Assembly (NCBI GenBank): GCA_965238265.1
Contig: OZ250185.1
Span: 989,153-1,053,152, forward strand
Source of the DNA: Chloroflexota bacterium
Lineage (GTDB): Bacteria > Chloroflexota > UBA11872 > UBA12225 > JAJDUF01
DNA: 64,000 nucleotides
Reading direction: 5' to 3'
The translations under genes and the position numbers were made by a program. A model generated the notes under the pieces. The model ran no database searches. It worked only from the letters and a program-made list of their open reading frames with translations, and was not told the DNA's origin. How positions within the stretch are numbered: position 1 is the first letter of the stretch; every line of letters starts with the position of its first letter. Shown here in pieces: positions 1-62,994 of this stretch.

Positions 1-332
1 GTCTATCCCCGCGTGTGCGGGGGAACCGCGCTTGTCTGTCATCGTCGTTTCCCTTATCCGGGTCTATCCCCGCGTGTGCGGGGGAACCTCGTCTGGTCTA
101 GGTCTGTCTGTAGGCGATCCAGGTCTATCCCCGCGTGTGCGGGGGAACCTCTCTAGTTGGGCCAGGCAGTACCGGAAGATGGGGTCTATCCCCGCGTGTG
201 CGGGGGAACCTCCTTCATTGATGTGACGAGTACGCGCGTATCGGGTCTATCCCCGCGTGTGCGGGGGAACCCATTCGATATCGTGGTCTCGGCAGTGCCT
301 AATGGGTCTATCCCCGCGTGTGCGGGGGAACC
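1..332 (-). CRISPR. Type I-E CRISPR array running off the left edge. Six 29-nt repeats are visible (the first is cut by the window edge), separated by five 32-nt spacers. The 28-nt conserved core on the plus strand is GGTCTATCCCCGCGTGTGCGGGGGAACC, so the canonical I-E form GGTTCCCCCGCACACGCGGGGATAGACC lies on the minus strand.
   Basis: Exact 28-nt repeat at 61-88, 122-149, 183-210, 244-271 and 305-332 with a 61-nt period, plus a partial copy at 1-27. The palindromic core CCCCGCGTGTGCGGGG matches the I-E (E. coli / actinobacterial) repeat family. The adjacent cas2-cas1 genes are on the same (minus) strand. Confidence 0.95.
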
Positions 333-1684: not shown

Positions 1685-1761
1685 CTGTCACCTCGGTCAG
1701 TCCCCGCCGCCGCGGGGAATACCTCTTTGGTTGTTAAGGTACGTCAAGCGGCGGCATCCGC

Positions 1762-5158: not shown

Positions 5159-6730
5159 CTACCTCCTTCTTGGGGGGAATAGCTCTGGGAATCCGTCTTT
5201 TGGCCCACGGATTCGCCCCTCGAATACGCTGTCGGCACGTACCCTAGCCCGGTAGCGTTGGATGGCCGGACAGGGCAGGGAATCCTCAGCATCCCGGAGA
5301 ATCCGCCGGGCGTGGTCTATCACGCCGTCCTTATCATCGTTCTTCAGCCAGCGGTGGCGAATACCCTTCCGCTCGGACTCGGCGGCCTCGAACTCCGTTT
5401 GCAGGTGATGGAAGAAGTCACGGTCAACGATCTCGTCGAGCTTATTGGCCCAGGGGTTGGCACGGTCACGCTGTTCGTCTCCGACGCCCTCGGTCTTGCC
5501 GCCCGCGGCGAAGGTCCAGATAGCATGTCGCAAGATGCGCTGCACTTTGCGAACATCCTCGACGCGTTCGCTCGCGATCCGGCCTAGTTCTTCGAGTCCA
5601 TCGGCGCGGCTGATAATCGGTATCACCTTCCCCTTGAACGGGATGATCCGCTCGTGATAGCCCTCGGTCTTGCCTTGACCGCGCACCATTCCGCGCGCGA
5701 CCAGCAGCATGTCCTGCGGCGAGCGGCGCTCGGCAGCGGTCAGCCTGAACAGAGGCGGCGCTTGCCAGTCGGTGGAGAGGTAGTCAACGGTTTTCTTGTA
5801 GGTGAAGCCGCCGGTGGGCAGGGTCAGCGACTTGCTCTCCTTCCTGTTGACGGGTGTCCAGGGGTCGCCGCTGAGGCCCTTCAACGCTTTGGCCTCGATG
5901 CGGGCCGCTTTGGAGGTAGCGCGGATGACGCTCACCCTTCCAATCGGATCGGCTTGCAACCGGATACGTCGGCAAATCTCGATATAGAAGGGATCGAGGT
6001 CGCTGAGGAGCAAGGCCTCAGCCTTTGTCCCATCCCAAGCCTTTGTCCACAGCAGTTGGAATCCGCCATCGCGCGTGAGGTCAAGGTCGAGGATGTTTTC
6101 GCGTTGCTCCAACAGCGCCCCAATGTCGCGGCGCACGTGAACCCCCGGCCGCACGGACGGGGTGAGGGTGAAGGCCGGCCGGCACCCCAACCCGCCGTTC
6201 ATGCGGGAAATCCCGTAGTTGCCCGCGCCGCCAAAGCCCTCCGTGGTTTGGAGCGTAATCAGCGCGAATAGCCAGTCGTTGATTGTGGCCGCCGACGCGA
6301 CGGCCGATTTGAGGTCGTGGTTTTTCGACGTGACCAGCATGTCTAGCTCGTCGGGCGTCTCGACCGTGCTCTTGTACTCGGCGAGCTTGCTCGGCGCGGA
6401 GGCCGGCGGCTGCATGAAGGCTGGCTCGCGGATGTCCGCGACGACCAGCTGCCACGGCTCGTCATCGGGATAGTCGGGTGTGAGGCCGCGAATGAGGTCC
6501 CGCCACTCCTCGGCAGCGGCCGGCGGCTCGCTAAGGCCGGCGCGGTGGAGCGACATGGCGCCGAGCTGGACGAGGAAGGCGTGCCAGGCGTGGCGCTGGT
6601 GCGGCCGCAGCACCGGGAAGCTGTCTACCCTGTCCGCCATCAGCGCGGCATAGACCTGCGGCAGCGTGGCCGCGACCGTTCCGTCGGCGGTGTTCATGTT
6701 GATGAGGGGTTCTGTGAGTAGGTTGAACAT
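5159..6730 (-). CDS. cse1: Cse1 (CasA, Cas8e) Cascade large subunit
   Basis: 523-aa ORF (MFNLLTEPLINMNTADGTVAATLPQVYAALMADRVDSFPVLRPHQRHAWHAFLVQL...) with the conserved Cse1 N-terminal motif. Confidence 0.88.
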   Translation of the reverse strand: MFNLLTEPLINMNTADGTVAATLPQVYAALMADRVDSFPVLRPHQRHAWHAFLVQLGAMSLHRAGLSEPPAAAEEWRDLIRGLTPDYPDDEPWQLVVADIREPAFMQPPASAPSKLAEYKSTVETPDELDMLVTSKNHDLKSAVASAATINDWLFALITLQTTEGFGGAGNYGISRMNGGLGCRPAFTLTPSVRPGVHVRRDIGALLEQRENILDLDLTRDGGFQLLWTKAWDGTKAEALLLSDLDPFYIEICRRIRLQADPIGRVSVIRATSKAARIEAKALKGLSGDPWTPVNRKESKSLTLPTGGFTYKKTVDYLSTDWQAPPLFRLTAAERRSPQDMLLVARGMVRGQGKTEGYHERIIPFKGKVIPIISRADGLEELGRIASERVEDVRKVQRILRHAIWTFAAGGKTEGVGDEQRDRANPWANKLDEIVDRDFFHHLQTEFEAAESERKGIRHRWLKNDDKDGVIDHARRILRDAEDSLPCPAIQRYRARVRADSVFEGRIRGPKDGFPELFPPRRR

Positions 6731-7004
6731 GGTTGTCGTCCTTGCTATGGGGTATCCTTAACTAGAACGGATGTCCAGAAGCGAGGTTGTGCAACTACAC
6801 GCTAACGGGGATTGGGCAACTCATGCACCGGCTTGTCGTCCATGGTTACTTGCGCTCCGGTCCCATCCCGGCCCGGAGCGACCACTACCTGAAACAGCAC
6901 ATCCTCAGTGATGACCGAGACGCATAGGGATTTACTTACTTGAGTGACCAGCCGAAGGTCATCCAAACTGGTACAATCGGACGGCCACAGGCCATAGGGA
7001 TAAG

Positions 7005-7087
7005 TGCGGTAGGTGGGACTCGAACTCACACGGCCACAGGCCACGTAGCTCCTGACTACGCGCGTCTACCAATTCCGCCACTACCGC
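7005..7087 (-). tRNA. tRNA-Leu-like class II tRNA sequence (possibly a pseudo-tRNA or att remnant). It has a 7-bp acceptor stem (GCGGTAG / CTACCGC), a Leu-type D-arm (GGCGGAATTGGTAGAC), a long variable arm and a T-loop (GTTCGAGTCC). The anticodon loop reads TCAGGAG, one nucleotide short of canonical UUCAGGU. The T-stem has one mismatch and no CCA is encoded.
   Basis: By-eye fold of the reverse complement of 7005-7087. The sequence resembles E. coli tRNA-Leu(CAG) through the D-arm. No tRNAscan was run. Confidence 0.4.
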
Positions 7088-7173
7088 GCGAACTCCCTAA
7101 CGTCGGAATCCTTCATTGCCCTTCAAAGGTTCATTGTATAGAATGGGAGCGCGATGTGTCAAGCACTCCCACT

Positions 7174-7266
7174 GGTTCCCCGCAGACAGACGCGGGGGTA
7201 GACCACTTCGTAGGGCGATGCTCACACATCGCACATTGGTTCCCCCGCACACGCGGGGTTGCGGGC
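7174..7266 (+). CRISPR. Degenerate mini-CRISPR of two decayed I-E repeats in plus-strand canonical orientation, opposite to the main array. The repeats are GGTTCCCCGCAGACAGACGCGGGGGTAGACC and GGTTCCCCCGCACACGCGGGGTTGCGGGC. They are separated by a ~33-nt spacer-like segment and preceded by an AT-richer leader-like stretch (ttcattgtatagaatgg).
   Basis: Both copies match the array repeat (GGTTCCCCCGCACACGCGGGGATAGACC) at about 80-90%, and their ~64-nt spacing is close to the 61-nt array period. They sit in the cas3-cse1 intergenic region. Confidence 0.5.
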
Positions 7267-7282
7267 GCCGGGGCTGTGCCGG

Positions 7283-9928
7283 CTAGAGTCGGCGCAGCCC
7301 CCGGCGGTCGTAGCGGCAGCGTCGCTCGCCAAGGGGGAACTCGAATCCGTCACCGTCCGGCGACGGTACTACCGACTCTGGTTCCTTACCGGACGGCAGC
7401 CAGTCCATCCGCAACGCCAACTTGTCAATCTGCTGCGAGCTGTCGAACGGGCTGGGCTGCGGGGGATCGAGGATTACGTCTAGCCGGTCGTCGCCGAGGC
7501 GCGTGCGTATCCGCTCCTCCTTGCCTGCAAAGGCGATGCCCTGATCGAGGAAAGTCTTGCAGCGCTCAATGACGACATGCTGGCCAGTGACGTTGTCCGC
7601 GATTCTCGCGCCCTCGACCTCGTTTGCATGGACAATCCAGTCCTCGCCCATTCCCCGCGTAATGGCTTTCAGCGCGCCCGGATGCGTGGCCCGCTCCACC
7701 AGCCGCCGGTTCATCTCCGGGATGCGCCACTCGGGATATTCGTCAATCAGCCGCCGCGTCGCTTCCAGTATCCGCAAGTCCTCGTACACATGGCCGTGTG
7801 GCCCCAAGCCGTTCGCGTTCGGCGTGCGCTCCAGCAATGGGGCGAGGTCGTTGTCCGGCGGCGTCAGGACGGTGCAGGCGGGCGTCGTATGGCCGGCCGG
7901 CCGGTCGTGGTGCTCGTGCCGATGGAGGCGGCCGATGCGCTGGAGCAGCACGTCCGCCGGGCAGAGGTCGGTAATCAGCAGGTCCGCGTCAATATCCAGC
8001 GACTGCTCCAGCGTTTGCGTGCCGACGACGATATGTCCACCGCCGGGCGGCTGTTTGCCAAGCTGCCGTTCCACCTCCTCATCCAGCAACCGGCGGTCCG
8101 CGGCGGCGAACCGGCCATGATGCAGCGTTGGCTTGCCGCAGACGGTGAACAGCAGCCCGGCGTCGGCGGGGCCGGCCAGCTCTTCTATCGCTTGCTGGGT
8201 ATTGATGGCGTAGTCAACGGTGTTGCGAACCACCAGGACCTTTGCACCGGCACGGGCGGCCGTCAAGGCGCGGTGGGCGGTGTCGTCGAAGTCGTGCATC
8301 CTGGAAACCGCCGTGATATGGACGCGCTTGCGCTGGTCGTTCTCGTTGGCCGCGAGGACCGCTTCACGGCCGTCTCCCAGTGTGGTGACCGCCGGGTATG
8401 CGGTGTTGATCGCGTCATCCAGCGAGAGGGACGGGGCCTCGCTGGTGCGGCGCGGCCGGAAGAGCCAGCGCAAGCGGGCCGCCGAGCCGAGCGTGGCGGA
8501 CATGAGCAAGGCGTAGCCGCCGGCGCCGATGTGGGCAGCGAGCAATTGCTCCAGAATGGCGCTCATGTAGGTGTCGGAAGCGTGAACCTCGTCTACGACC
8601 AAGAGATTGCGCGCCAGGCACGCGGCCCGCATATGGGCGTTCTTGACTTGGAGCGCGCCCAGCATCGCCTGGTCTACGGTGCCGACGGCGATCTGGGCAG
8701 CGAGGAACCGCTTGGGGTTCTCGGCAGCCCACGGTCTGTCGCGGTTGTAGTCCGGCAATTCCACGCCGGCGGCATCCGCGTCAGGTTCGTAGCCGGGGAC
8801 GGCGAGCACCACGGGCGGCCTGTGCTGTGGCAGCAGCTTGCCGATGAAGCGCTTGACGCGCCCGTGGATCTGGACGGCGGCCGCTCGCGTGGGCAGGGCG
8901 AAGTAGAGGCCGTCCACCAACTGTCGCTCGTACATCTTGGCAAAGCGCCAGAGCGCGGCCTCCGTCTTGCCGGAGCCGGTTTCGGACTCGATGATGACCA
9001 GCTGCTGATCCAGCGGCGTGCGCTGTGCAGTCGCTTGGATGGCGTTCGGCGTGGGTGAACCGGGTATGTCGAACAGCTCTCCGAACTCCGGTACGCGAGT
9101 AAAGCCGTTCCGCTGACCGAGTAAGTCCAGCCCTATCGCGCCGATGGCCTGCTTCGCCTGTCGCTGGGCCGCCTCGAAGTAGTCGTCCCGGTGTTCGTCA
9201 ACAAACGGGAACCAGTCCTCGTTGGAGCCAATCCAGTCGGCCCAGTTGCACAGTCCCAGGAACATGTGCTGGAAGGCGGGAGCGGACGGCAGTGGCGGGG
9301 CACCAGAGTCGAACGCCGCCGGGAACCATTGGCGCACCAGCTTGCCGATCCGCGCGACGCAGCGGCGCGGGTGAAGCTCGCCAAAGGAGCACCAGACGCG
9401 CGCGTTCTCCGACCGGCTGTCATGCAGATTCAGCGGCTCACCGTGATGCGACAGCGCCGCGACGAATAACGCACACGCGGTCACGCCGCCATCGCTATCC
9501 CAGGACAGAACGTCATCATCCCATCCCAGCGCCTCGAAGAACCACGCGGCAGTTTCCCCGTCCCTGCCAGTAAGCACGGGTACTAGGTCTGCCGTGTGTC
9601 CGGTGCGCGGTGGTTTCCTCTTGTTCGACAGGTCTTCCGGGCGCCAGATTCGCGCCTGGAAGCCGACGTTTACCTTGCCGATATCGTGCAGGGCAGCGAA
9701 GACAGCCAGACGCGCAGCGGTTGCGTCGTCGAGGTGGTCGAAACCAGCGGTCCAGGCCAGCCGGTTCCGGATGATCGGTTGGGCCAGCAGTGCCTCGAAG
9801 CAGGCGCCGACATCGGCAAGGTGGTACTCGAGCAGGTGAATGTCCTCCGGACCCCGTTGCCGGCCAGGGGCCGCCTTGGCCCAGAACAGCCTGGTGTAGG
9901 CCGGTGTGCCCTCTACCCGGCCGACCAC
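7283..9928 (-). CDS. cas3: Cas3 HD-nuclease / SF2 helicase (type I-E). A GTG start is predicted at 9928, overlapping the vapC stop.
   Basis: The 881-aa ORF has an N-terminal HD domain (...HLLEYHLADVGACFEALL..., HD motifs), helicase motifs (GSGKTEAAL Walker A, DEVH-type motif II) and a C-terminal domain. Confidence 0.88.
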   Translation of the reverse strand: MVGRVEGTPAYTRLFWAKAAPGRQRGPEDIHLLEYHLADVGACFEALLAQPIIRNRLAWTAGFDHLDDATAARLAVFAALHDIGKVNVGFQARIWRPEDLSNKRKPPRTGHTADLVPVLTGRDGETAAWFFEALGWDDDVLSWDSDGGVTACALFVAALSHHGEPLNLHDSRSENARVWCSFGELHPRRCVARIGKLVRQWFPAAFDSGAPPLPSAPAFQHMFLGLCNWADWIGSNEDWFPFVDEHRDDYFEAAQRQAKQAIGAIGLDLLGQRNGFTRVPEFGELFDIPGSPTPNAIQATAQRTPLDQQLVIIESETGSGKTEAALWRFAKMYERQLVDGLYFALPTRAAAVQIHGRVKRFIGKLLPQHRPPVVLAVPGYEPDADAAGVELPDYNRDRPWAAENPKRFLAAQIAVGTVDQAMLGALQVKNAHMRAACLARNLLVVDEVHASDTYMSAILEQLLAAHIGAGGYALLMSATLGSAARLRWLFRPRRTSEAPSLSLDDAINTAYPAVTTLGDGREAVLAANENDQRKRVHITAVSRMHDFDDTAHRALTAARAGAKVLVVRNTVDYAINTQQAIEELAGPADAGLLFTVCGKPTLHHGRFAAADRRLLDEEVERQLGKQPPGGGHIVVGTQTLEQSLDIDADLLITDLCPADVLLQRIGRLHRHEHHDRPAGHTTPACTVLTPPDNDLAPLLERTPNANGLGPHGHVYEDLRILEATRRLIDEYPEWRIPEMNRRLVERATHPGALKAITRGMGEDWIVHANEVEGARIADNVTGQHVVIERCKTFLDQGIAFAGKEERIRTRLGDDRLDVILDPPQPSPFDSSQQIDKLALRMDWLPSGKEPESVVPSPDGDGFEFPLGERRCRYDRRGLRRL

Positions 9929-10338
9929 GGATTCATTACCTCAATCCCACAGCCGGCAAAGTCATCCACATCCCGGGTCGCAACCCGTGCCCCTCGGGAG
10001 CGGGCAATCGCTGCGATCTGGCAGTCGGCCTGATTGATCGGCCGGCCAGCGGCACGGCGATCCGCCGCGATCACCGCGAATGCTCGGGCGGCCGCACTGT
10101 CGAAGGGCAAGATACGGTCGGCGAATAGGACACCGAAGGCACGCTCGGCCGCGGCAGCCAGACCGTGCCGCCGTCTTCCACCGGGCAACAGTGCGATGCC
10201 GCTGCGGATCTCCGCCTCAGTGACAGCGGTCACGAATAGGGTGCTCGCCAGCTGCTGGTCCAGCCAAGCAAGGACCTCCGGCTGCGGGTAGTCCCGCATC
10301 AGTTCCGAGACAACATTGGTATCCAGAACGATCATCAC
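9913..10338 (-). CDS. vapC: PIN-domain toxin VapC/FitB-like (copy A)
   Basis: The 141-aa ORF carries the four conserved PIN acidic residues (IVLDTNVV, TEAEI, DCQIAAIA, TRDVDDF). Confidence 0.85.
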   Translation of the reverse strand: MMIVLDTNVVSELMRDYPQPEVLAWLDQQLASTLFVTAVTEAEIRSGIALLPGGRRRHGLAAAAERAFGVLFADRILPFDSAAARAFAVIAADRRAAGRPINQADCQIAAIARSRGARVATRDVDDFAGCGIEVMNPWSAG

Positions 10339-10345
10339 CGTTGGC

Positions 10346-10630
10346 TCAGTCGAACCGGGGCGGTTCCCGCATCGGTTCCCGCGGCGGGATATCCAGCTCT
10401 ACGCTGCCGAAAGGCTTGAAAAGCTCGTGGATGGCTGTACCGAGGTTTCTTACGGGGGCTTTCTCCTGCCCGAGCGCGGCTCGCAGGATGTCATGCACCT
10501 CCTCTTCCAGGGAGTGGCCATGCTGGGCCGCCCGGCGGCGGAGGCGCTGCTGTAGGCTCTCGTCGAGGTTACGGACCGTGATACTGGCCATGCTCGTACC
10601 TCCGTCTGTCAACTCATTCCATCGTACCAC
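10346..10630 (-). CDS. vapB: VapB/FitA-like antitoxin (copy A). The probable true start is the internal Met at about 10591 (MASITVRNLDESLQQRL...).
   Basis: Small ORF immediately upstream of vapC that ends 8 nt before the vapC start. Its FitA-like N-terminus is typical of a plasmid-stability-protein antitoxin. Confidence 0.75.
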   Translation of the reverse strand: MVRWNELTDGGTSMASITVRNLDESLQQRLRRRAAQHGHSLEEEVHDILRAALGQEKAPVRNLGTAIHELFKPFGSVELDIPPREPMREPPRFD

Positions 10631-10715
10631 GACTGCACCGCAAGCAATTGGCCGGCCGAAGGCGGCGGGCGTCGTAGTCCAGAATGGAGAGCGGATTAGG
10701 GGTTCCGCGAGTATG

Positions 10716-10750
10716 GGTAGTGTTGCCTCACTCTCTCCGCTCGCCTATAA
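10716..10750 (+). promoter_or_regulatory. Near-consensus sigma70-like promoter TTGCCT-N17-TATAAT inside repeat copy A. It faces rightwards, antisense to the recombinase fragment. An identical copy lies at about 26507-26541.
   Basis: Motif read directly from the sequence (ttgcctcactctctccgctcgcctataat). Function unknown. Confidence 0.35.
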
Positions 10751-10788
10751 TTGCCGGGCGCAATGACCGGGGCGCTGGGCTTGGGAAC

Positions 10789-11240
10789 CTACAGGGGCAC
10801 CACCAATTCAAACGTGGTACTGCGTACAGTCCCCTCAGGCCCACCAGAATGTACTGTACTGCGAACTCGCCCATTCAGGGCGATCTCTGCGGCGTCCGCT
10901 CCACCTATCGGAGAGTCTTCCGGCGTGGGTATGGAGTAGACGATGGCGGCCCTGCCGGGCTTGACCTCGATCTCCTTGACGAAGGGCCGGACGAAGACCC
11001 TGGTCTCCGTCAGTTCGCTGGTCTTCAGGAAGTCGCTCATCTCCTCGGCGAAGGCGGCGATGGTGTCGGCGCTGTCGAGGAACTGCCGCCGCTCTGCCAG
11101 CAGCCCTCTGGCCTCCTCTGCGGCGACCTCCAGCTTCTCCTTGCGCTCCCGGTGCTCCCTGATGCGCTCGGAGGCGTCGGCCATCTCGATGTCGGTGGTC
11201 TCGATGACCTGCCGGATGCGGCCCAGCCGCCGCTTGGTCG
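10789..11240 (-). pseudogene. C-terminal fragment (~150 aa) of a large serine recombinase: coiled-coil plus the C-terminal ...FVKEIEVKPGRAAIVYSIPTPEDSPIGGADAAEIALNGRVRSTVHSGGPEGT... segment. The N-terminal catalytic domain is absent.
   Basis: The C-terminal half of ORF 10789-11778 resembles the conserved tail of large serine recombinases, whereas its N-terminal 180 aa are low-complexity nonsense. Confidence 0.45.
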
Positions 11241-25703: not shown

Positions 25704-26129
25704 CTACCCGGCCGACCACGGATTCATTACCTCAATCCCACAGCCGGCAAAGTCATCCACATCCCGGGTCGCAACCCGTGCCCCTCGGGAGCGAGCAATC
25801 GCTGCGATCTGGCAGTCGGCCTGATTGATCGGCCGGCCAGCGGCACGGCGATCCGCCGCGATCACCGCGAATGCTCGGGCGGCCGCACTGTCGAAGGGCA
25901 AGATACGGTCGGCGAATAGGACACCGAAGGCACGCTCGGCCGCGGCAGCCAGACCGTGCCGCCGTCTTCCACCGGGCAACAGTGCGATGCCGCTGCGGAT
26001 CTCCGCCTCAGTGACAGCGGTCACGAATAGGGTGCTCGCCAACTGCTGGTCCAGCCAAGCAAGGACCTCCGGCTGCGGGTAGTCCCGCATCAGTTCCGAG
26101 ACAACATTGGTATCGAGAACGATCATCAC
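25704..26129 (-). CDS. vapC: PIN-domain toxin VapC/FitB-like (copy B), identical to copy A
   Basis: Its translation is identical to ORF 9913-10338. Confidence 0.85.
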   Translation of the reverse strand: MMIVLDTNVVSELMRDYPQPEVLAWLDQQLASTLFVTAVTEAEIRSGIALLPGGRRRHGLAAAAERAFGVLFADRILPFDSAAARAFAVIAADRRAAGRPINQADCQIAAIARSRGARVATRDVDDFAGCGIEVMNPWSAG

Positions 26130-26640
26130 CGTTGGCTCAGTCGAACCGGGGCGGTTCCCGCATCGGTTCCCGCGGCGGGATATCCAGCTCTACGCTGCCG
26201 AAAGGCTTGAAAAGCTCGTGGATGGCTGTACCGAGGTTTCTTACGGGGGCTTTCTCCTGCCCGAGCGCGGCTCGCAGGATGTCATGCACCTCCTCTTCCA
26301 GGGAGTGGCCATGCTGGGCCGCCCGGCGGCGGAGGCGCTGCTGTAGGCTCTCGTCGAGGTTACGGACCGTGATACTGGCCATGCTCGTACCTCCGTCTGT
26401 CAACTCATTCCATCGTACCACGACTGCACCGCAAGCAATTGGCCGGCCGAAGGCGGCGGGCGTCGTAGTCCAGAATGGAGAGCGGATTAGGGGTTCCGCG
26501 AGTATGGGTAGTGTTGCCTCACTCTCTCCGCTCGCCTATAATTGCCGGGCGCAATGACCGGGGCGCTGGGCTTGGGAACCTACAGGGGCACCACCAATTC
26601 AAACGTGGTACTGCGTACAGTCCACCTAGGCCCACCAGAG
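25705..26640. repeat. Direct repeat copy B (see 9915-10835). It carries the second vapB/vapC pair and a 17-codon recombinase 3' end.
   Basis: Near-identical to copy A. Confidence 0.9.
26137..26421 (-). CDS. vapB: VapB/FitA-like antitoxin (copy B)
   Basis: Its translation is identical to ORF 10346-10630. Confidence 0.75.
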   Translation of the reverse strand: MVRWNELTDGGTSMASITVRNLDESLQQRLRRRAAQHGHSLEEEVHDILRAALGQEKAPVRNLGTAIHELFKPFGSVELDIPPREPMREPPRFD

Positions 26641-42589: not shown

Positions 42590-42715
42590 TGGTAGAATGC
42601 CCGCAGCGTGAGCAGGACCTACCCCCAACCCCCTCCCTGAAGGGAAGGGACTACCGGGCGCTGCACTGACTCCCCTGCCCTGGAGGGAAGGGGACGGGGG
42701 TTAGGTGAAAACTAG
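42590..42715. repeat. Intergenic palindromic repeat family A (ctacccccaaccccctccctgaagggaaggg ... ccctggagggaaggggacgggggttaggt). A second copy lies at about 45365-45485.
   Basis: Two ~120-bp copies compared by eye. Each contains an inverted repeat. Confidence 0.7.
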
Positions 42716-45329: not shown

Positions 45330-45501
45330 AGCTGCTCCGTCAGGAAAACGTCCGATCCGCCTCCCTGTGGGGGGGGGGCTGCCCCTACCCCCAACCCCCT
45401 CCCTGAAGGGAAGGGGCTACCGGTTGCATTGATGACTCCCCTTCCCTGGAGGGAAGGGGCCGGGGGTTAGGTCCAACCCTGCTCGTCCGTGAGGTACACC
45501 T

Positions 45502-46671: not shown

Positions 46672-46826
46672 TCCACGGCGGCATTGGCTCCCTCACCGAC
46701 CCACCGGCCTGAGCCACAGGGCGCCCACAAGGGACGCCCCCACCAATGGCAATCCTACGTAGGGGCACCCCTGGTAGGTGCCCTGATACCTAACCCAGTG
46801 AGCCGCCTCACCCCCGCCGGCCTCCG

Positions 46827-46880
46827 GCGGACTCCCCCTCTCTATCACTCGGCGATGGAGAGGGGGCCGGGGGGTGAGGC
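46827..46880. repeat. Palindromic intergenic repeat family B (GGACTCCCCCTCTCTATCACTCGGCGATGGAGAGGGGGCCGGGGGGTGAGG). Copies also lie at 48138-48190 and 62324-62374.
   Basis: Three near-identical copies. The stem is CCCCCTCTC...GAGAGGGGG. Confidence 0.8.
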
Positions 46881-48084: not shown

Positions 48085-48215
48085 AACGAGAAGGCGTGAG
48101 AATGACGGAGGGGACCGGGATGATGGCGGCACAGGCGGCGGACTCCCCCTCGCTATCACTCGGCGATGGAGAGGGGGCCGGGGAGTGAGGCAGGTCACTG
48201 ACCACTGGCCACTAC

Positions 48216-52227: not shown

Positions 52228-54633
52228 ATGCGTCGGATCATTATCGGGATCATCCTACTCGTCGTAGTCGGTGCGGTGATTGTCGTCGTCAGTGGCGTGC
52301 TCCCTGTTGGGGATGGAGAAGACACCACCGCGGGGCCAACGCCTACTGCCGAACCGGACCCGTTGATCGCAGAAGGCATTGTGGTCGCCGCCAAGCAGGC
52401 GGAACTCAGCTTTGGCATCGGCGGTACGGTGACGAAGGTCTCCGTCGAGCTGGGGTCGTTGGCGCGGTCGGGCGCCATCCTTGCGACACTCGATGCGGCC
52501 GACGCCGAGCTGCAAGTGCGCTCGGCCGAAAACGACGTGCAGGCCCACCGCGCCGCCCTCGACCAGCTCCGCACCGGGCCGCGCTCGGAGGAGATCGCTT
52601 CCCTGCAAGCGGCCGTGGCGGCCGCCCGTGCCCAGCTCGCCCAGCTCGAAGCCGCTACACCAGCGGACGAACAGACCGCACTCGCCCAACTCCAGTCCGC
52701 CAAGGTTCAGCTCGCTGCCCTCACGCAGGGGCCAGCGGCGGCAGATGTGGCCATCGCCGACGCTGCCCTCGCTACTGCCCAAGCACGGCTCGCCGCCATC
52801 GAAGACGGCCCTACCGCCGCCGACTTGACTATCGTTGACGCCGCGCTCGCTACCGCCCAAGCGCGACTCGCCGCCATCGAAGACGGCCCTACCGCCGCCG
52901 ACTTGACTATCGTTGACGCCGCGCTCGCTACCGCCCAAGCGCGACTCGCCGCCATCGAAGACGGCCCTACCGCCGCCGACTTGACTATCGCCGATGCTGC
53001 CCTCGCTACCGCCCAAGCGCGACTCGCCGCCATCGAAGATGGGCCACGCCCCGAAGACGTGCGGAGCGCAGAGGCTCAAGTGCGCCAAGCGGAGATTCGC
53101 CTAGCGGCAGCACGCCAAGCAGCGCAGGGTGGCGACCTCGTGAGCGCCCAGGCCAGCCTGGCCTCGGCGCAGACCCGGTTGGCGCAAGTCAAGGCCGGGC
53201 CGACCGCCACCGACATCGCCGCGGCCCAGGCTGGCGTTGATACGGCAGAGAACTCGCTGGCCCAGCTACGCGATGGCTCGACGCGCGCCGAAGACGTGCG
53301 GGCAGCCGAGCTGGGAGTGCAGCAGGCGCTCATCGGCCTCGACCGCGCCCGCGCCGGCCGCGATACGGCCGCCAGCATGCCCGGGGTCAGCGGATCGCAG
53401 ATCGCGGCGGCCGACGCCGACGTACAAGCAGCCGAGCTTGCCGTCCAAATAGCGCAGAACAACCTGGCCAAGGTGCGTAGCGGGGCCACGCCGTGGGCCT
53501 TGCGGCAGGCCGAGCTGGCCGTCGAGCAAGCCAAGGCCGGGCTGGCGCAGCTCACTGACCCCAAGACCTACGACATCCGGACGGCCGAGGCGGCCGTAGA
53601 GCAGGCCCACGCCACACTCGCCAAAGTCAGCGCCGCCCTTGAAACCGAGATCGCGCAGGCCGAGGCCGGCCTGACCCAGGCGCAAGCCAATCTGGACCGC
53701 CTGCTGCAACCCGACGCTGCCGATCTGGAAGCCGCCCGTCAAGTGGTCCGCCAGGCGGAAGCCCAGCGCCAGAAACTCCTGCAACCCAGCGCCGCCGATC
53801 TGGAAGCCGCTCGCCAAGCAGTCCGCCAGGCGGAAGCCCAGCGCCAGAAACTCCTGCAACCCAGCGCCGCCGATCTGGAAGCCGCTCGCCAAGCAGTCCG
53901 CCAGGCGGAAGCCCAACGCCAGAAACTCCTGCAGCCCAGCGCTGCCGATCTGGAAGTCACCCGCCAAGCGGTCCGCCAAGCGGAAGCCCAGCGCCAGAAG
54001 CTCTTTGCAGCTGCCGCGGCCAGCACGCTCGCTACGGCCCAAGCTAACGTGGATCAGGCGCAAGCCAGTCTGGACCGCCTGCAAGCCACCCGACCCCACC
54101 AGGTCACCGCCGCCCGACAGAGCGTGGCACAGGCGCGGGCACAGCTTGCGCTCCGGCAGGCGCCGCCGACAGAGGCCGATATCGAAGCGGCGCAGGCGGC
54201 GCTGGCCCGCGCCGAAACGGCGCTCACCCAAGCTAGACAAGCACAGGACAACACCACCCTCACAGCGCCGTTCGCCGGGACCGTGGCCACACTCTCCCTG
54301 AGCGAGGGCGAGCGTGTGGGCGCCGGTGCGGCGGTAGTCACGCTGGTTGATATGTCGCGCCTGGTGATCGAGACGAGAGACCTGGATGAAAGCGGCGTGG
54401 CGCGGGTGGCCGTTGACCAGCCGGTCGAAGTGGTTATCTATGCGCTGGAGCACACCTTGCCGGGGCGCATCGTGCGGATTGACCCGCTGGGGGTGACTCG
54501 CTCCGGCGGCGATACGATGTATACGGCGACAGTAGCACTCAGCGAGGACGTGCCGGGGCTGCGACCCGGCATGACCACCAAGGTGGACTTCACCGCCGCC
54601 AACCCTCCACCCGAGCCAGCCGACAAATCATGA
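52228..54633 (+). CDS. HlyD/MacA-family periplasmic adaptor (membrane-fusion protein) with a greatly extended coiled-coil containing perfect tandem repeats
   Basis: 801-aa ORF with an N-terminal TM helix, a long Ala/Gln-rich coiled-coil, and C-terminal beta-barrel and membrane-proximal domains (TLTAPFAGTVATLSLSEGERV...). Confidence 0.8.
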   Translation: MRRIIIGIILLVVVGAVIVVVSGVLPVGDGEDTTAGPTPTAEPDPLIAEGIVVAAKQAELSFGIGGTVTKVSVELGSLARSGAILATLDAADAELQVRSAENDVQAHRAALDQLRTGPRSEEIASLQAAVAAARAQLAQLEAATPADEQTALAQLQSAKVQLAALTQGPAAADVAIADAALATAQARLAAIEDGPTAADLTIVDAALATAQARLAAIEDGPTAADLTIVDAALATAQARLAAIEDGPTAADLTIADAALATAQARLAAIEDGPRPEDVRSAEAQVRQAEIRLAAARQAAQGGDLVSAQASLASAQTRLAQVKAGPTATDIAAAQAGVDTAENSLAQLRDGSTRAEDVRAAELGVQQALIGLDRARAGRDTAASMPGVSGSQIAAADADVQAAELAVQIAQNNLAKVRSGATPWALRQAELAVEQAKAGLAQLTDPKTYDIRTAEAAVEQAHATLAKVSAALETEIAQAEAGLTQAQANLDRLLQPDAADLEAARQVVRQAEAQRQKLLQPSAADLEAARQAVRQAEAQRQKLLQPSAADLEAARQAVRQAEAQRQKLLQPSAADLEVTRQAVRQAEAQRQKLFAAAAASTLATAQANVDQAQASLDRLQATRPHQVTAARQSVAQARAQLALRQAPPTEADIEAAQAALARAETALTQARQAQDNTTLTAPFAGTVATLSLSEGERVGAGAAVVTLVDMSRLVIETRDLDESGVARVAVDQPVEVVIYALEHTLPGRIVRIDPLGVTRSGGDTMYTATVALSEDVPGLRPGMTTKVDFTAANPPPEPADKS
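52750..53040 (+). repeat. About 4.5 copies of a perfect 60-bp tandem repeat inside the MFP gene, encoding AALATAQARLAAIEDGPTAADLTIVD
   Basis: Identical 60-nt units read directly from the sequence. Confidence 0.9.
53690..54000 (+). repeat. About 4 copies of a near-perfect 75-bp tandem repeat inside the MFP gene, encoding LLQPSAADLEAARQAVRQAEAQRQK
   Basis: Identical or near-identical 75-nt units read directly from the sequence. Confidence 0.9.
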
Positions 54634-62173: not shown

Positions 62174-62367
62174 GGATACTCGGCTAGCGCCAACCAGTCT
62201 TGGTCACATTGGCAAAATCATGAAGAGACCCGTACTCGATACAGTTTGCGCCGAGTAGCTGTCGGCGGGGGGCACGTTCTATCTCCTGTAGGGGCGTCCT
62301 CCCCGCCTGTAGAGGCACTGCCGCACTCCCCCTCTCTATCGCTCGGCGATGGAGAGGGGGCCGGGGG

Positions 62368-62994
62368 GTGAGGCGCGGTCCAACCCCGCGTGGTTGGGGT
62401 GGCGGGGTGGCCGACAGCTCTTGGGCCAGCGGGCTATACTCTGGCCGTAGCGTTGCCGGCTGGCGCGAGAACGATTCGGCTGGGGGAGGGCGAGTGATGG
62501 CGGTGTCGGGTGCTGCTTTCCGGGACGTGATGAGCCACTGGGCCACCGGTGTCACGGTGGTGACGACGTGCCATGACGGCGAGAACCACGGCATGACCGT
62601 GAATTCGTTCTCTTCGCTGACGGTGGAGCCACCGTTGGTGCTCTTCTGCGCCGACCGGTCCGCGCACACCTACGGGCTTGTCAAGGCAAGTGGCGTCTTC
62701 GTCGTCAACGTGCTCAGTGCGGGTCAAGAGGAGCTCTCGAACCTGTTTGCCGGCCGCTATCCGGAGCGCGACGCGGACCGCTTTGCCGGCGTAGCGTATC
62801 GGCAGGCAGCGACCGGAGCGCCCATTCTGCAAGGCAGTCTGGGGTATCTCGACTGTCGCGTGGTCGCGCGGTATCCGCAAGGTACGCATACCATCTTTGT
62901 TGGTGCAGTCGAGGCGGCGGAGCTGCTGCAGCCCGAGGAGCAGCCCCTCCTCTACTACCATCGCCGCTACCGGCAGTTTCGCGATCATCGGTAG
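62368..62994 (+). CDS. Flavin reductase (NAD(P)H:FMN oxidoreductase) domain protein. The probable start is the internal Met at about 62497.
   Basis: HWATGVTVVTTCHDGENHGMTVNSFSSLTVEPPLVLFC is the flavin-reductase-like domain signature. Confidence 0.75.
   Translation: MRRGPTPRGWGGGVADSSWASGLYSGRSVAGWRENDSAGGGRVMAVSGAAFRDVMSHWATGVTVVTTCHDGENHGMTVNSFSSLTVEPPLVLFCADRSAHTYGLVKASGVFVVNVLSAGQEELSNLFAGRYPERDADRFAGVAYRQAATGAPILQGSLGYLDCRVVARYPQGTHTIFVGAVEAAELLQPEEQPLLYYHRRYRQFRDHR

Follow-up and report, generated by a model that had tools for sequence, protein, structure and literature searches.

Mini-arrays are found in about 19% of bacterial type I-E CRISPR loci (Shmakov et al. 2023, 10.1101/2023.03.03.530964), and for creR of Salmonella a Cascade-dependent repression of the casA promoter has been shown (Liu et al. 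2023, 10.1101/2023.03.10.532045). The known CreT RNAs, which belong to the CreTA systems of Haloarcula (type I-B) and of Acinetobacter and Pseudomonas (type I-F), consist of a Shine-Dalgarno (SD) sequence, a mini open reading frame (ORF) with rare arginine or isoleucine codons or a Pro-Pro pair, and a hairpin. In the CrePA system of Acinetobacter baylyi (type I-F), creA and a KilAC-domain protein toxin, CreP, are encoded between cas3 and csy1 (10.1101/2024.01.05.574328). Our literature searches found no description of a transfer RNA (tRNA) or tRNA-like cargo under a regulator that resembles a CRISPR RNA (crRNA). Here we report a putative regulatory mini-array and a tRNA-like element in the gap of 552 nucleotides (nt) between cas3 and cse1 (6731-7282) of a type I-E locus of a Chloroflexota bacterium. 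The locus lies in a 64,000-nt stretch of contig OZ250185.1 (GenBank assembly GCA_965238265.1, positions 989,153 to 1,053,152 of the forward strand), which is called the window below and to which all coordinates refer. We argue, with moderate confidence, that the gap is a self-contained regulatory cassette with a tRNA cargo, the role of which may be CreT-like.

Results

The plus strand of the gap carries two repeat-like units, ΨR1 (7174..7205) and ΨR2 (7238..7266), which begin 64 nt apart and enclose a spacer-like sequence of 32 nt, the Ψspacer (7206..7237, plus strand; CTTCGTAGGGCGATGCTCACACATCGCACATT). Both were scored by local alignment to the crRNA-sense consensus repeat (GGTTCCCCCGCACACGCGGGGATAGACCC) of the CRISPR array at window positions 1-332; they reached 32 (ΨR1) and 42 (ΨR2), against a maximum of 25 among 6341 background tiles of 40 nt taken from both strands of the window. 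These values bear out a preliminary description, made from the letters of the window, which had proposed two decayed I-E repeats on the plus strand about 64 nt apart. The degeneration of the two units is asymmetric. ΨR1 has the hairpin CCCCGC/GCGGGG with an enlarged loop of 8 nt and keeps part of the 5' handle (GTAGACCA, 6/8 identical to ATAGACCC of the array). The first 21 nt of ΨR2 (GGTTCCCCCGCACACGCGGGG), comprising the 3' handle and the Cas6e hairpin, are identical to the array repeat (21/21), and its last 8 nt are degenerate (TTGCGGGC vs ATAGACCC, 2/8). The 21 nt retained in ΨR2 are exactly those that stay on a mature I-E crRNA, and the decay thus follows the asymmetric pattern described for creA and creR genes.

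The gap was compared with the corresponding region of at least 80 related loci obtained with a Cse1 profile search and of 11 obtained by exact-protein look-ups (designated by L numbers). Many of these loci share the antisense mini-array. The Ψspacer of L005 is identical to that of the window, that of L003 has two differences (positions 17-18), and a co-varying variant occurs in L007, L008, L089 and L091.

An inverted repeat with arms of 15 nt (7270..7301), found by repeat search and in the minimum free energy (MFE) fold, spans the stop codon of cas3 and is kept in L003 and L005. It forms a terminator-like hairpin without a U-tract between the convergent transcripts of cas3 and the mini-array, and the MFE structure predicted for the mini-array transcript (z=-5.5) shows it as a strong terminal hairpin, together with both repeat hairpins. 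In the same fold, a 9-nt sequence of the mini-array leader (GCGATGTGT, 7151-7159), which is antisense to the -35 region of the minus-strand promoter described below, is the exact complement of Ψspacer positions 19-27 (7224-7232) and closes a long stem around ΨR1. The corresponding resemblance is imperfect in L003, L005 and L089, with no compensatory change. A leader-spacer pairing that encloses ΨR1 in this fold (GCGAUGUGU/ACACAUCGC) was rejected as a candidate structure, there being no compensatory change in L003, L005 or L007. A solitary repeat-like sequence (GTATTCCCCGCGGCGGCGGGGACTGACCG; 1694-1722, minus strand) was observed at the 3' end of cas6e, at its junction with cas1; it agrees with the array consensus at 19/29 positions and has an intact hairpin, and it may be a chance match because the window contains two other 19/29 matches.

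Between the mini-array and the tRNA-like element there are two promoter-like sites in back-to-back orientation, compared with 0.2 expected from shuffled sequences, in agreement with the promoter-like stretch noted near the repeats in the preliminary description. The site on the plus strand (TTGCCC-N17-TAGAAT, 7116..7144) would serve the mini-array, and the site on the minus strand (TTGACA-N18-TACAAT, 7133..7162), which is near-consensus (11/12), faces the tRNA-like element and cse1. Both were also found in the promoter scans of L003 and L005.

The candidate target of the Ψspacer (7111..7131, minus strand) covers the expected transcription start of this second promoter and consists of the protospacer adjacent motif (PAM) AAC (7131..7129) and the protospacer CTTTGAAGGGCAATGAAG (7128..7111). 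In the window, L003 and L005, the -35 element of the mini-array promoter falls inside the target. A plain ungapped search of the window with the Ψspacer gave no good site, and the target was recognised only because of orthologous loci and a scoring that skips every sixth base. The orthologous sites are located downstream of the minus-strand -10 box, on the cas-sense strand, and consist of AAN followed by a match to the 5' part of the spacer; they read AAC-CTTtGaAGGGCaATG in the window, AAT-CTTCGCAGGGCAATG in L003, AAG-CTTCGCAGGGCAAT in L005, AAA-CCTTGTATtGCcATGCT in L007 and AAT-CCTTGcATGGCaATGCT in L089. In the window, spacer positions 1-15 match the target except for positions 4, 6 and 12, and the site was called only because it is orthologous to those of L003 and L005.

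Pairing was scored over the first 18 spacer positions with the exception of 6, 12 and 18 (15 positions counted), which yielded guide-target pairs in about 30 loci. Many loci reach 14-15, whereas shuffled spacers reach a maximum of 11-13/15 (mean about 9.8). Spacer positions 1-5 match the target in 28-30 and positions 7-11 in 25-30 of the 30 loci, and over positions 13-17 the number of matching loci drops from 28 to 18. Matches are found in 8/30 loci at position 6, in 3/30 at position 12 (under random expectation) and in 7/30 at position 18, and are random from position 19 onward. Positions 6, 12 and 18 were not used in the scoring, so their mismatches were not selected by it. A mismatch period of six bases is the known signature of Cascade guide-target pairing. 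The PAM of the regulatory target is AAN in all 30 loci (16 AAT, 10 AAC, 2 AAG and 2 AAA), and in most of the 28 loci displayed a TTGACA...-10 element stands directly upstream of it. The AAT and AAC motifs (26/30) and the mismatch at position 12 may reflect selection for binding without recruitment of Cas3.

The region thus shares the characters of a CreR/CreA gene: two repeat-like units around one spacer-like sequence in a cas intergenic region, asymmetric degeneration in which ΨR1 keeps part of the 5' handle and ΨR2 the 3' handle and hairpin, a PAM-proximal partial match to a PAM-flanked site at a promoter, and a spacer that is conserved between genomes and co-varies with its target. The partial match is weak in the window alone, and the pattern comes from L003, L005 and 27 further loci. 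Of the regulatory consequences that the preliminary description had suggested for an antisense array, a regulatory role is supported by the match of the guide to the promoter facing cse1; transcription into the 3' end of cas3 is not, as the hairpin at 7270-7301 separates the two.

On the minus strand, 84 nt (7004..7087) form a tRNA-like element with a class-II body of the leucine type, A73 and no encoded CCA, which was recognised by ARAGORN, Rfam and BLAST. It is the single tRNA called by ARAGORN in the whole 64-kb window (7087..7004, minus strand). In a sensitive scan of the local region its cloverleaf scored 41.7 bits against Rfam family RF00005 (gathering score 29, E=1.9e-7); an Rfam scan of the whole window with fast filters did not pick it up. 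All BLAST matches among Escherichia coli genomes and phages are annotated tRNA-Leu genes (about 79% identity over 93% of the query). The acceptor stem has 7 perfect base pairs (bp), and the D-arm, with a stem of 3 bp and a loop of 11 nt, is identical to that of E. coli tRNA-Leu (GTGGCGGAATTGGTAGACGCG). The anticodon stem has 5 bp plus one extra G·U pair, the long variable arm reads GGCC-TGT-GGCC and the T-loop TTCGAGT. The T-arm contains one A.C mismatch, which is private to this contig (C at 7016); L002, L003 and L005 have T at this position and perfect pairing. The preliminary description, which had folded the minus strand into a class-II tRNA with a perfect acceptor stem, a leucine-type D-arm and a long variable arm, is confirmed in these points and also in the C at position 33 and the T-stem mismatch. 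It had further considered the anticodon loop to be one nucleotide short; the loop U-C-A-G-G-A-G (7055..7049) has the normal 7 nt, and the 1-nt length difference from E. coli tRNA-Leu sits in the variable loop.

Read in register, this loop contains the proline anticodon AGG, together with C33, A37 and G38. The body of the element is that of a tRNA-Leu (class II, leucine-type D-arm, A73), but the anticodon is neither NAG nor YAA at positions 34-36: it is AGG in the window and L003 and TGG in L005, and a leucine-type CAG occurs only one position out of register. Bacterial tRNA-Pro is expected to have a class-I body, U33, G37 (the m1G37 site) and a C1-G72 pair, whereas the element has a long variable arm, C33, A37 and G1-C72. 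Within the loop, three positions depart from genuine bacterial tRNA-Pro: C replaces U at 33, A replaces G at 37, and 38 differs as well. The sequence GGAG is kept in the anticodon loop of all three versions of the element.

A search with nhmmer over all fetched loci located the tRNA-like element only in three lineages on five contigs (the window, L001, L002, L003 and L005). L001 and L002 are near-identical copies from other samples, which were obtained by exact-protein look-ups with the Cse1 of the window and its nearest homologues; these look-ups gave no additional tRNA-bearing lineage. Neither JGI metagenome contigs nor IMG/VR gave a match in exact-pattern scans for the element or for a parent tRNA-Leu with the same anticodon stem. 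The versions of the element in the window, L003 and L005 are identical at 83-84/84 nt (98-100%), compared with about 80-90% (60-nt windows) for the flanking cas3 and cse1 DNA and 77-79% for the Cse1 proteins. Apart from the private change in the T-stem, the sole difference between lineages is at the wobble position 34 (T in L005, A in the other two), and the anticodon thereby remains NGG (AGG or UGG, both proline).

In the Cse1 tree the three tRNA-bearing lineages are non-sister: L003 is placed with L089 (88%) and L005 with L090 (85%), and both of these neighbours carry cargo other than the tRNA. L003 and L089 are about 87% identical in the genes but 12-48% in the gap, whereas identity of the window with L003 climbs to 97-100% across the tRNA. 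The right-hand junctions of the cassette differ in the three lineages (about -185, -70 and -90 from the cse1 ATG), and at each of them the remnant belongs to the small-ORF type of that locus's own relatives. Because non-sister loci share these elements, identity jumps in the gap and the junctions differ, the mini-array with guide CTTCGTAGGGCG, the target and the tRNA appear to move together as a cassette, which seems to be either exchanged between loci or held by strong selection.

A conserved 3' extension of the cassette (6943..7003, minus strand), whose fold was examined, shows about 90% identity to L003 and L005. Within it lie a possible extended hairpin, GUGGCCG...UGGUCAC, for which covariation support is weak, and the second copy (6981-6994) of a direct repeat of 14 nt, which L003 and L005 also have; 35 nt separate this copy from the first (7030-7043), with no element between the two. 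We do not claim the hairpin as a structure: 4/5 substitutions are unpaired, but there is no compensatory pair. Two ORFs were also rejected. A frame of 19 codons from an ATG located 3' of the tRNA (MACGRPIVPVW...) has no SD sequence and is broken by a 1-nt indel in L003, where the DNA is still conserved, and an ORF of 80 amino acids (aa) called by gene finders (7044..6802) is a chimera of tRNA sequence and the small-ORF relic described below. The interval between target and tRNA does not have the CreT architecture: it reads ATG-AAG-...-TAG in the window and ATG-AGA-ATA-GCG-CGG-TAG, with rare codons, in L003, and it has no start codon in L005. A CreT-type mini-ORF at this place was rejected, since the ATG belongs to the target.

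In many relatives (e.g. L037, L041, L049) cse1 follows 70-110 nt after the target, which is the plain layout of CreR autoregulation, and in some the cas3-cse1 gap is as short as 94 nt. In others, the slot between the mini-array target and cse1 is occupied by ORFs of 50-110 aa, which fall into at least four unrelated families: beta-rich (L006, L007, L008, L013, L015, L016, L024, L032, L052, L083, L084, L086, L089, L091), coiled-coil (L018, L021, L022, L029, L053, L057, L059, L070, L071, L078, L079), Cys-rich (L063, L075, L082) and a fourth type (L035, L042, L064, L080). Pfam and PADLOC scans of these ORFs gave no credible match (no KilAC domain), and a protein search with one of them returned 2 sequences only. 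They may represent accessory proteins co-regulated with Cascade, or toxins. In the window, the last ~40 codons of such a small ORF persist as a relic directly after the tRNA cassette (6802..6929, minus strand; translated as ...CVSVITEDVLFQVVVAPGRDG... up to a stop codon). In an alignment it corresponds to the small ORFs that L086 and L089 have at -175..-73 and -197..-69 from the cse1 ATG. In the window, the tRNA has taken the place of the slot's protein gene.

About 40 nt upstream of cse1, nearly all close relatives share a conserved element (6764..6776, minus strand; GGACATCCGTTCT) with the partly palindromic motif GAACATCCGTTC, which could be a protein operator or an mRNA element; it is kept even in loci that have no mini-array (L085, L087, L088). 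In L084 (1877-2101, minus strand) and L090 (2095-2319, minus strand), an ORF of 74 aa occurs upstream of the mini-array and on its strand; the hydrophobic C-terminal stretch of this ORF (...LYRALWLAGLAIVTVNVTLTTALVKLL), judged by eye, resembles a membrane segment. The arrangement of cargo in these close relatives of L005 is a different one.

The locus itself is a complete type I-E locus on the minus strand of the window, in the order cas3, cse1, cse2, cas7, cas5, cas6e, cas1 and cas2. The gap is bordered upstream by cas3 (7283..9928, minus strand; 881 aa, Pfam Cas3_HD, DEAD and Cas3-like_C_2) and downstream by cse1 (5159..6730, minus strand). The closest Cse1 relatives stem from metagenome-assembled genomes of Chloroflexota. 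A duplication of 937 nt with 99.5% identity (9913-10848 and 25704-26639) spans a gene for a PIN-domain (VapC-like) protein that overlaps the start of cas3 (9913..10338), the ORF upstream of that gene and a further stretch of about 200 nt. In L087, PIN and Cas3_HD are on a single product according to the gene caller. In L088 (2200-2510; Cse1 83% identical) the mini-array and cargo region are deleted, the deletion beginning right after the cas3 stop codon; cse1 is shortened to 470 aa and cas3 is split, so that the locus looks like a decaying one. Unrelated to the gap are tandem repeats of 75 and 78 nt around 52.7-54 kb (52697-54082) and two families of GC-rich palindromes, 56-89 nt long and dispersed (46825-46880, 48136-48191 and 62319-62374; 42618-42706 and 45384-45472).

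Discussion

From these comparisons we consider it highly likely that the mini-array is a regulatory crRNA gene of the CreR/CreA type, which steers Cascade to two promoters, that of the Cascade operon and its own. Processing by Cas6e, binding of Cascade and repression of the target promoter are inferred from the tested I-E system of Salmonella and E. coli; cas6e and all Cascade genes are encoded in the window. The two-repeat mini-array would be transcribed on the plus strand from its own promoter, and Cas6e would cut the transcript to a crRNA-like RNA with an 8-nt handle (GUAGACCA), the 32-nt Ψspacer and a hairpin handle of 21 nt, which would be loaded into Cascade. The first ~15 nt of the Ψspacer would then pair with the AAN-flanked site just past the -10 box of the strong minus-strand promoter. 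With such partial pairing Cascade would bind without triggering Cas3, and bound Cascade would block the start of transcription towards cse1. Because the -35 element of the mini-array lies inside the target, it would also block the mini-array's own transcription.

Transcription from the repressed promoter would first yield a tRNA in which a leucine body is combined with a proline anticodon (AGG in the window, UGG in L005); the usual tRNA-processing enzymes would probably cut it out of the Cascade transcript's leader. In the presence of Cascade its level would be low; if Cascade were lost or blocked by an anti-CRISPR, the promoter would open and the tRNA would accumulate. That the tRNA is a selected, functional cargo is very probable, since a neutral pseudogene or att scar is not expected to remain 98-100% identical between flanks of about 80-90%.

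What such a tRNA would do can be stated only tentatively. In tRNA-Pro, G37 is needed for m1G37, which prevents +1 frameshifting. The leucyl-tRNA synthetase (LeuRS) does not read the anticodon, and anticodon variants of tRNA-Leu and tRNA-Ser mistranslate and are toxic in a dose-dependent manner (PMC11028032, PMC7954030, PMC6827378). As LeuRS ignores the anticodon, we propose that the tRNA would be charged with leucine; it would then read proline codons as leucine and, without m1G37, possibly shift the reading frame, and growth would be damaged. By analogy, the tRNA may act as a CreT-like conditional poison through Pro-to-Leu miscoding, a proposal that we put forward with reserve. It is favoured by the body of the LeuRS type, the precedent of mistranslating variants, the I-F slot that holds creA and a toxin, and the action of CreT RNAs on translation. 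Whether Cascade-silenced tRNAs with a leucine body and a proline anticodon, on a mobile cassette that displaces small-protein cargoes, form a class of CRISPR-guarding RNA toxin is at least as doubtful.

Several observations weigh against a poison of this kind. The tRNA-like element is confined to the few lineages named above, and its fold shows no compensatory change across the three. The scans of the window, L003 and L005 gave no promoter-like site between the tRNA and cse1; the tRNA and the Cascade genes therefore probably share a transcript, and some tRNA would be made at all times. The target in the window has a PAM other than AAG and a mismatch at seed position 4, and its 12/15 is no better than the best shuffled spacer; a potent toxin is hard to keep under such a weakened operator. 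The small ORFs in the slot of other relatives often abut or overlap the start of cse1 and look like first genes of the operon, not like separate toxin genes. Decoding by the tRNA may be poor owing to C33 and a possible U32.G38 pair, and AGG would read mainly CCU, which accounts for 7% of the proline codons here. Moreover, G35, G36 and A73 are identity elements of the prolyl-tRNA synthetase in E. coli, and a harmless charging with proline is conceivable.

A rival explanation retains the regulatory mini-array as described and makes the tRNA-like element either a harmless co-transcribed tRNA or an element that acts in cis on processing or stability of the Cascade mRNA, whose leader RNase P and RNase Z would cut at this place, as they do at the tRNAs co-transcribed with tufB in E. 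coli. We regard this explanation as unlikely, but as the one that fares best beside the proposed poison. It agrees with the lack of a predicted promoter between tRNA and cse1 and with the position of the slot in the operon leader of relatives; it would tolerate the weakened target of the window, and C33 and G38 suggest poor decoding. However, a cleavage signal alone need not keep all identity features of tRNA-Leu, nor an NGG anticodon that varies only at the wobble position. Many relatives have no leader element at all, and a selfish or selected cargo accounts better than a passive leader for the spread of the cassette to non-sister loci, where its junctions differ.

It is less probable that the tRNA-like element is toxic or regulatory without miscoding, as a sink for LeuRS or EF-Tu, as an SD mimic, or as a decoy or substrate of a PIN nuclease of the VapC type. 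The GGAG in the loop of all three versions would suit a mimic, a vapBC-like pair lies directly upstream of cas3 and is duplicated in the window, and it is on translation initiation or tRNA pools that known CreT RNAs act. However, a complementarity of four bases makes a weak SD, and the element has no start codon, unlike the known CreT RNAs.

The preliminary description had considered that the tRNA may be a pseudo-tRNA or the relic of an att site and had suggested that cas3 and cse1-cas2 were joined by a rearrangement. On this view the decayed array left behind would have no function beyond a possible antisense effect on cas3. We consider this very improbable; judged by the conservation of both, neither the mini-array nor the tRNA appears to be a relic. 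The repeats are indeed degenerate, but in a pattern that keeps the handles and loses the rest, and the mini-array occurs with the same spacer in other genomes, with a PAM-flanked target at the promoter; spacer and target co-vary over 30 loci with the 6-nt periodicity of Cascade. The 14-nt direct repeat could recall an att site in a tRNA gene, but its copies enclose 35 nt only, with no integrase or other element between them. C33 and the T-stem mismatch would suit a pseudogene, but the mismatch is absent from L002, L003 and L005, and the tRNA is conserved far beyond its flanks in three non-sister loci, which at a mutual Cse1 identity of 77-79% are not assembly duplicates of one sequence. A rearrangement might account for the small ORF that is partly destroyed beside the tRNA; cas3 beside cse1, however, is the normal I-E order, with a gap of just 94 nt in some relatives.

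Least probable of all is a small ordinary immune array with one phage-derived spacer, for although the repeat-spacer-repeat unit, the 32-nt spacer and the leader-like promoter would fit, the outer repeat halves are degenerate, the spacer is common to different genomes and matches the host's adjoining promoter, the pairing ends after about 15-17 nt, and the linked tRNA cassette gave no match in the exact-pattern scans of IMG/VR and JGI metagenome contigs.

The CreR/CreA-type assignment of the mini-array extends this principle to I-E systems of Chloroflexota and of other uncultured lineages (Binatia, Caldilineaceae, Entotheonella). The 30 co-varying guide-target pairs form a natural data set, in which positions 1-5, 7-11 and 13-17 matter and positions 6, 12 and 18 are free, and in which AAT and AAC are far commoner than AAG as PAMs for binding without cleavage. 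All characterised Cascade-repressed RNA toxins hit translation from the side of the mRNA, by sequestration of a rare tRNA or by ribosome stalling. If the proposed poison is real, a Cascade-repressed tRNA with mismatched body and anticodon would attack from the side of the adaptor, and would be a rare natural bacterial case of a deliberately mismatched tRNA. Without toxicity, the release of a tRNA from the Cascade operon's leader under crRNA-like control would still be a new arrangement.

Comparison with known systems

The closest counterparts of the mini-array are CreR and the I-E mini-arrays of Salmonella enterica and E. coli. Like these, it lies in the gap between cas3 and cas8e and has two degenerate repeats, with a 5' handle in ΨR1 and a 3' handle in ΨR2, and a conserved spacer with a PAM-proximal match of about 15 nt to the promoter region of the Cascade operon, in which every sixth position is mismatched. 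It differs from them in its host lineages, which are Chloroflexota and relatives, in the regulatory PAM, which is mostly AAT or AAC instead of AAG, in the overlap of the target with the mini-array's own -35 element, and in the presence of a tRNA gene or a small ORF between target and cas8e.

With CreTA the locus shares a crRNA-like guide in a cas intergenic region that matches the promoter of an adjacent small RNA gene related to translation, and a cassette that appears to move as a unit. Unlike CreTA, it has no conserved mini-ORF and its RNA is a tRNA; the cargo and the Cascade genes appear to be driven by one promoter, and toxicity is a prediction here. With CrePA it shares the slot between cas3 and the first Cascade gene; the cargo promoter of CrePA is repressed by Cascade, and the relatives of the present locus carry small protein genes in the slot. 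The subtype is different, however, and the small slot ORFs have neither a KilAC domain nor any other Pfam or PADLOC match.

The tRNA itself resembles anticodon-swapped class-II tRNAs, such as engineered tRNA-Ser(UGG), variants of tRNA-Leu and Candida tRNA-Ser(CAG), in combining a body recognised by an anticodon-blind synthetase with a foreign anticodon. Candida tRNA-Ser(CAG), which reassigns CUG, also has a base other than U (G) at position 33. Those tRNAs, however, are eukaryotic or engineered, and none is known to be under CRISPR control; for the present element, charging and decoding are predicted. In its position upstream of protein genes in one transcription unit, the tRNA recalls units in which tRNA and mRNA are co-transcribed, such as thrU-tyrU-glyT-thrT-tufB of E. 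coli, where tRNAs lie upstream of a protein gene. The tRNAs of such units differ from it in being ordinary decoders with matching body and anticodon. A regulatory mini-array between cas3 and cas8e of I-E loci is thus of an already published kind, and the tRNA cargo is the new part.

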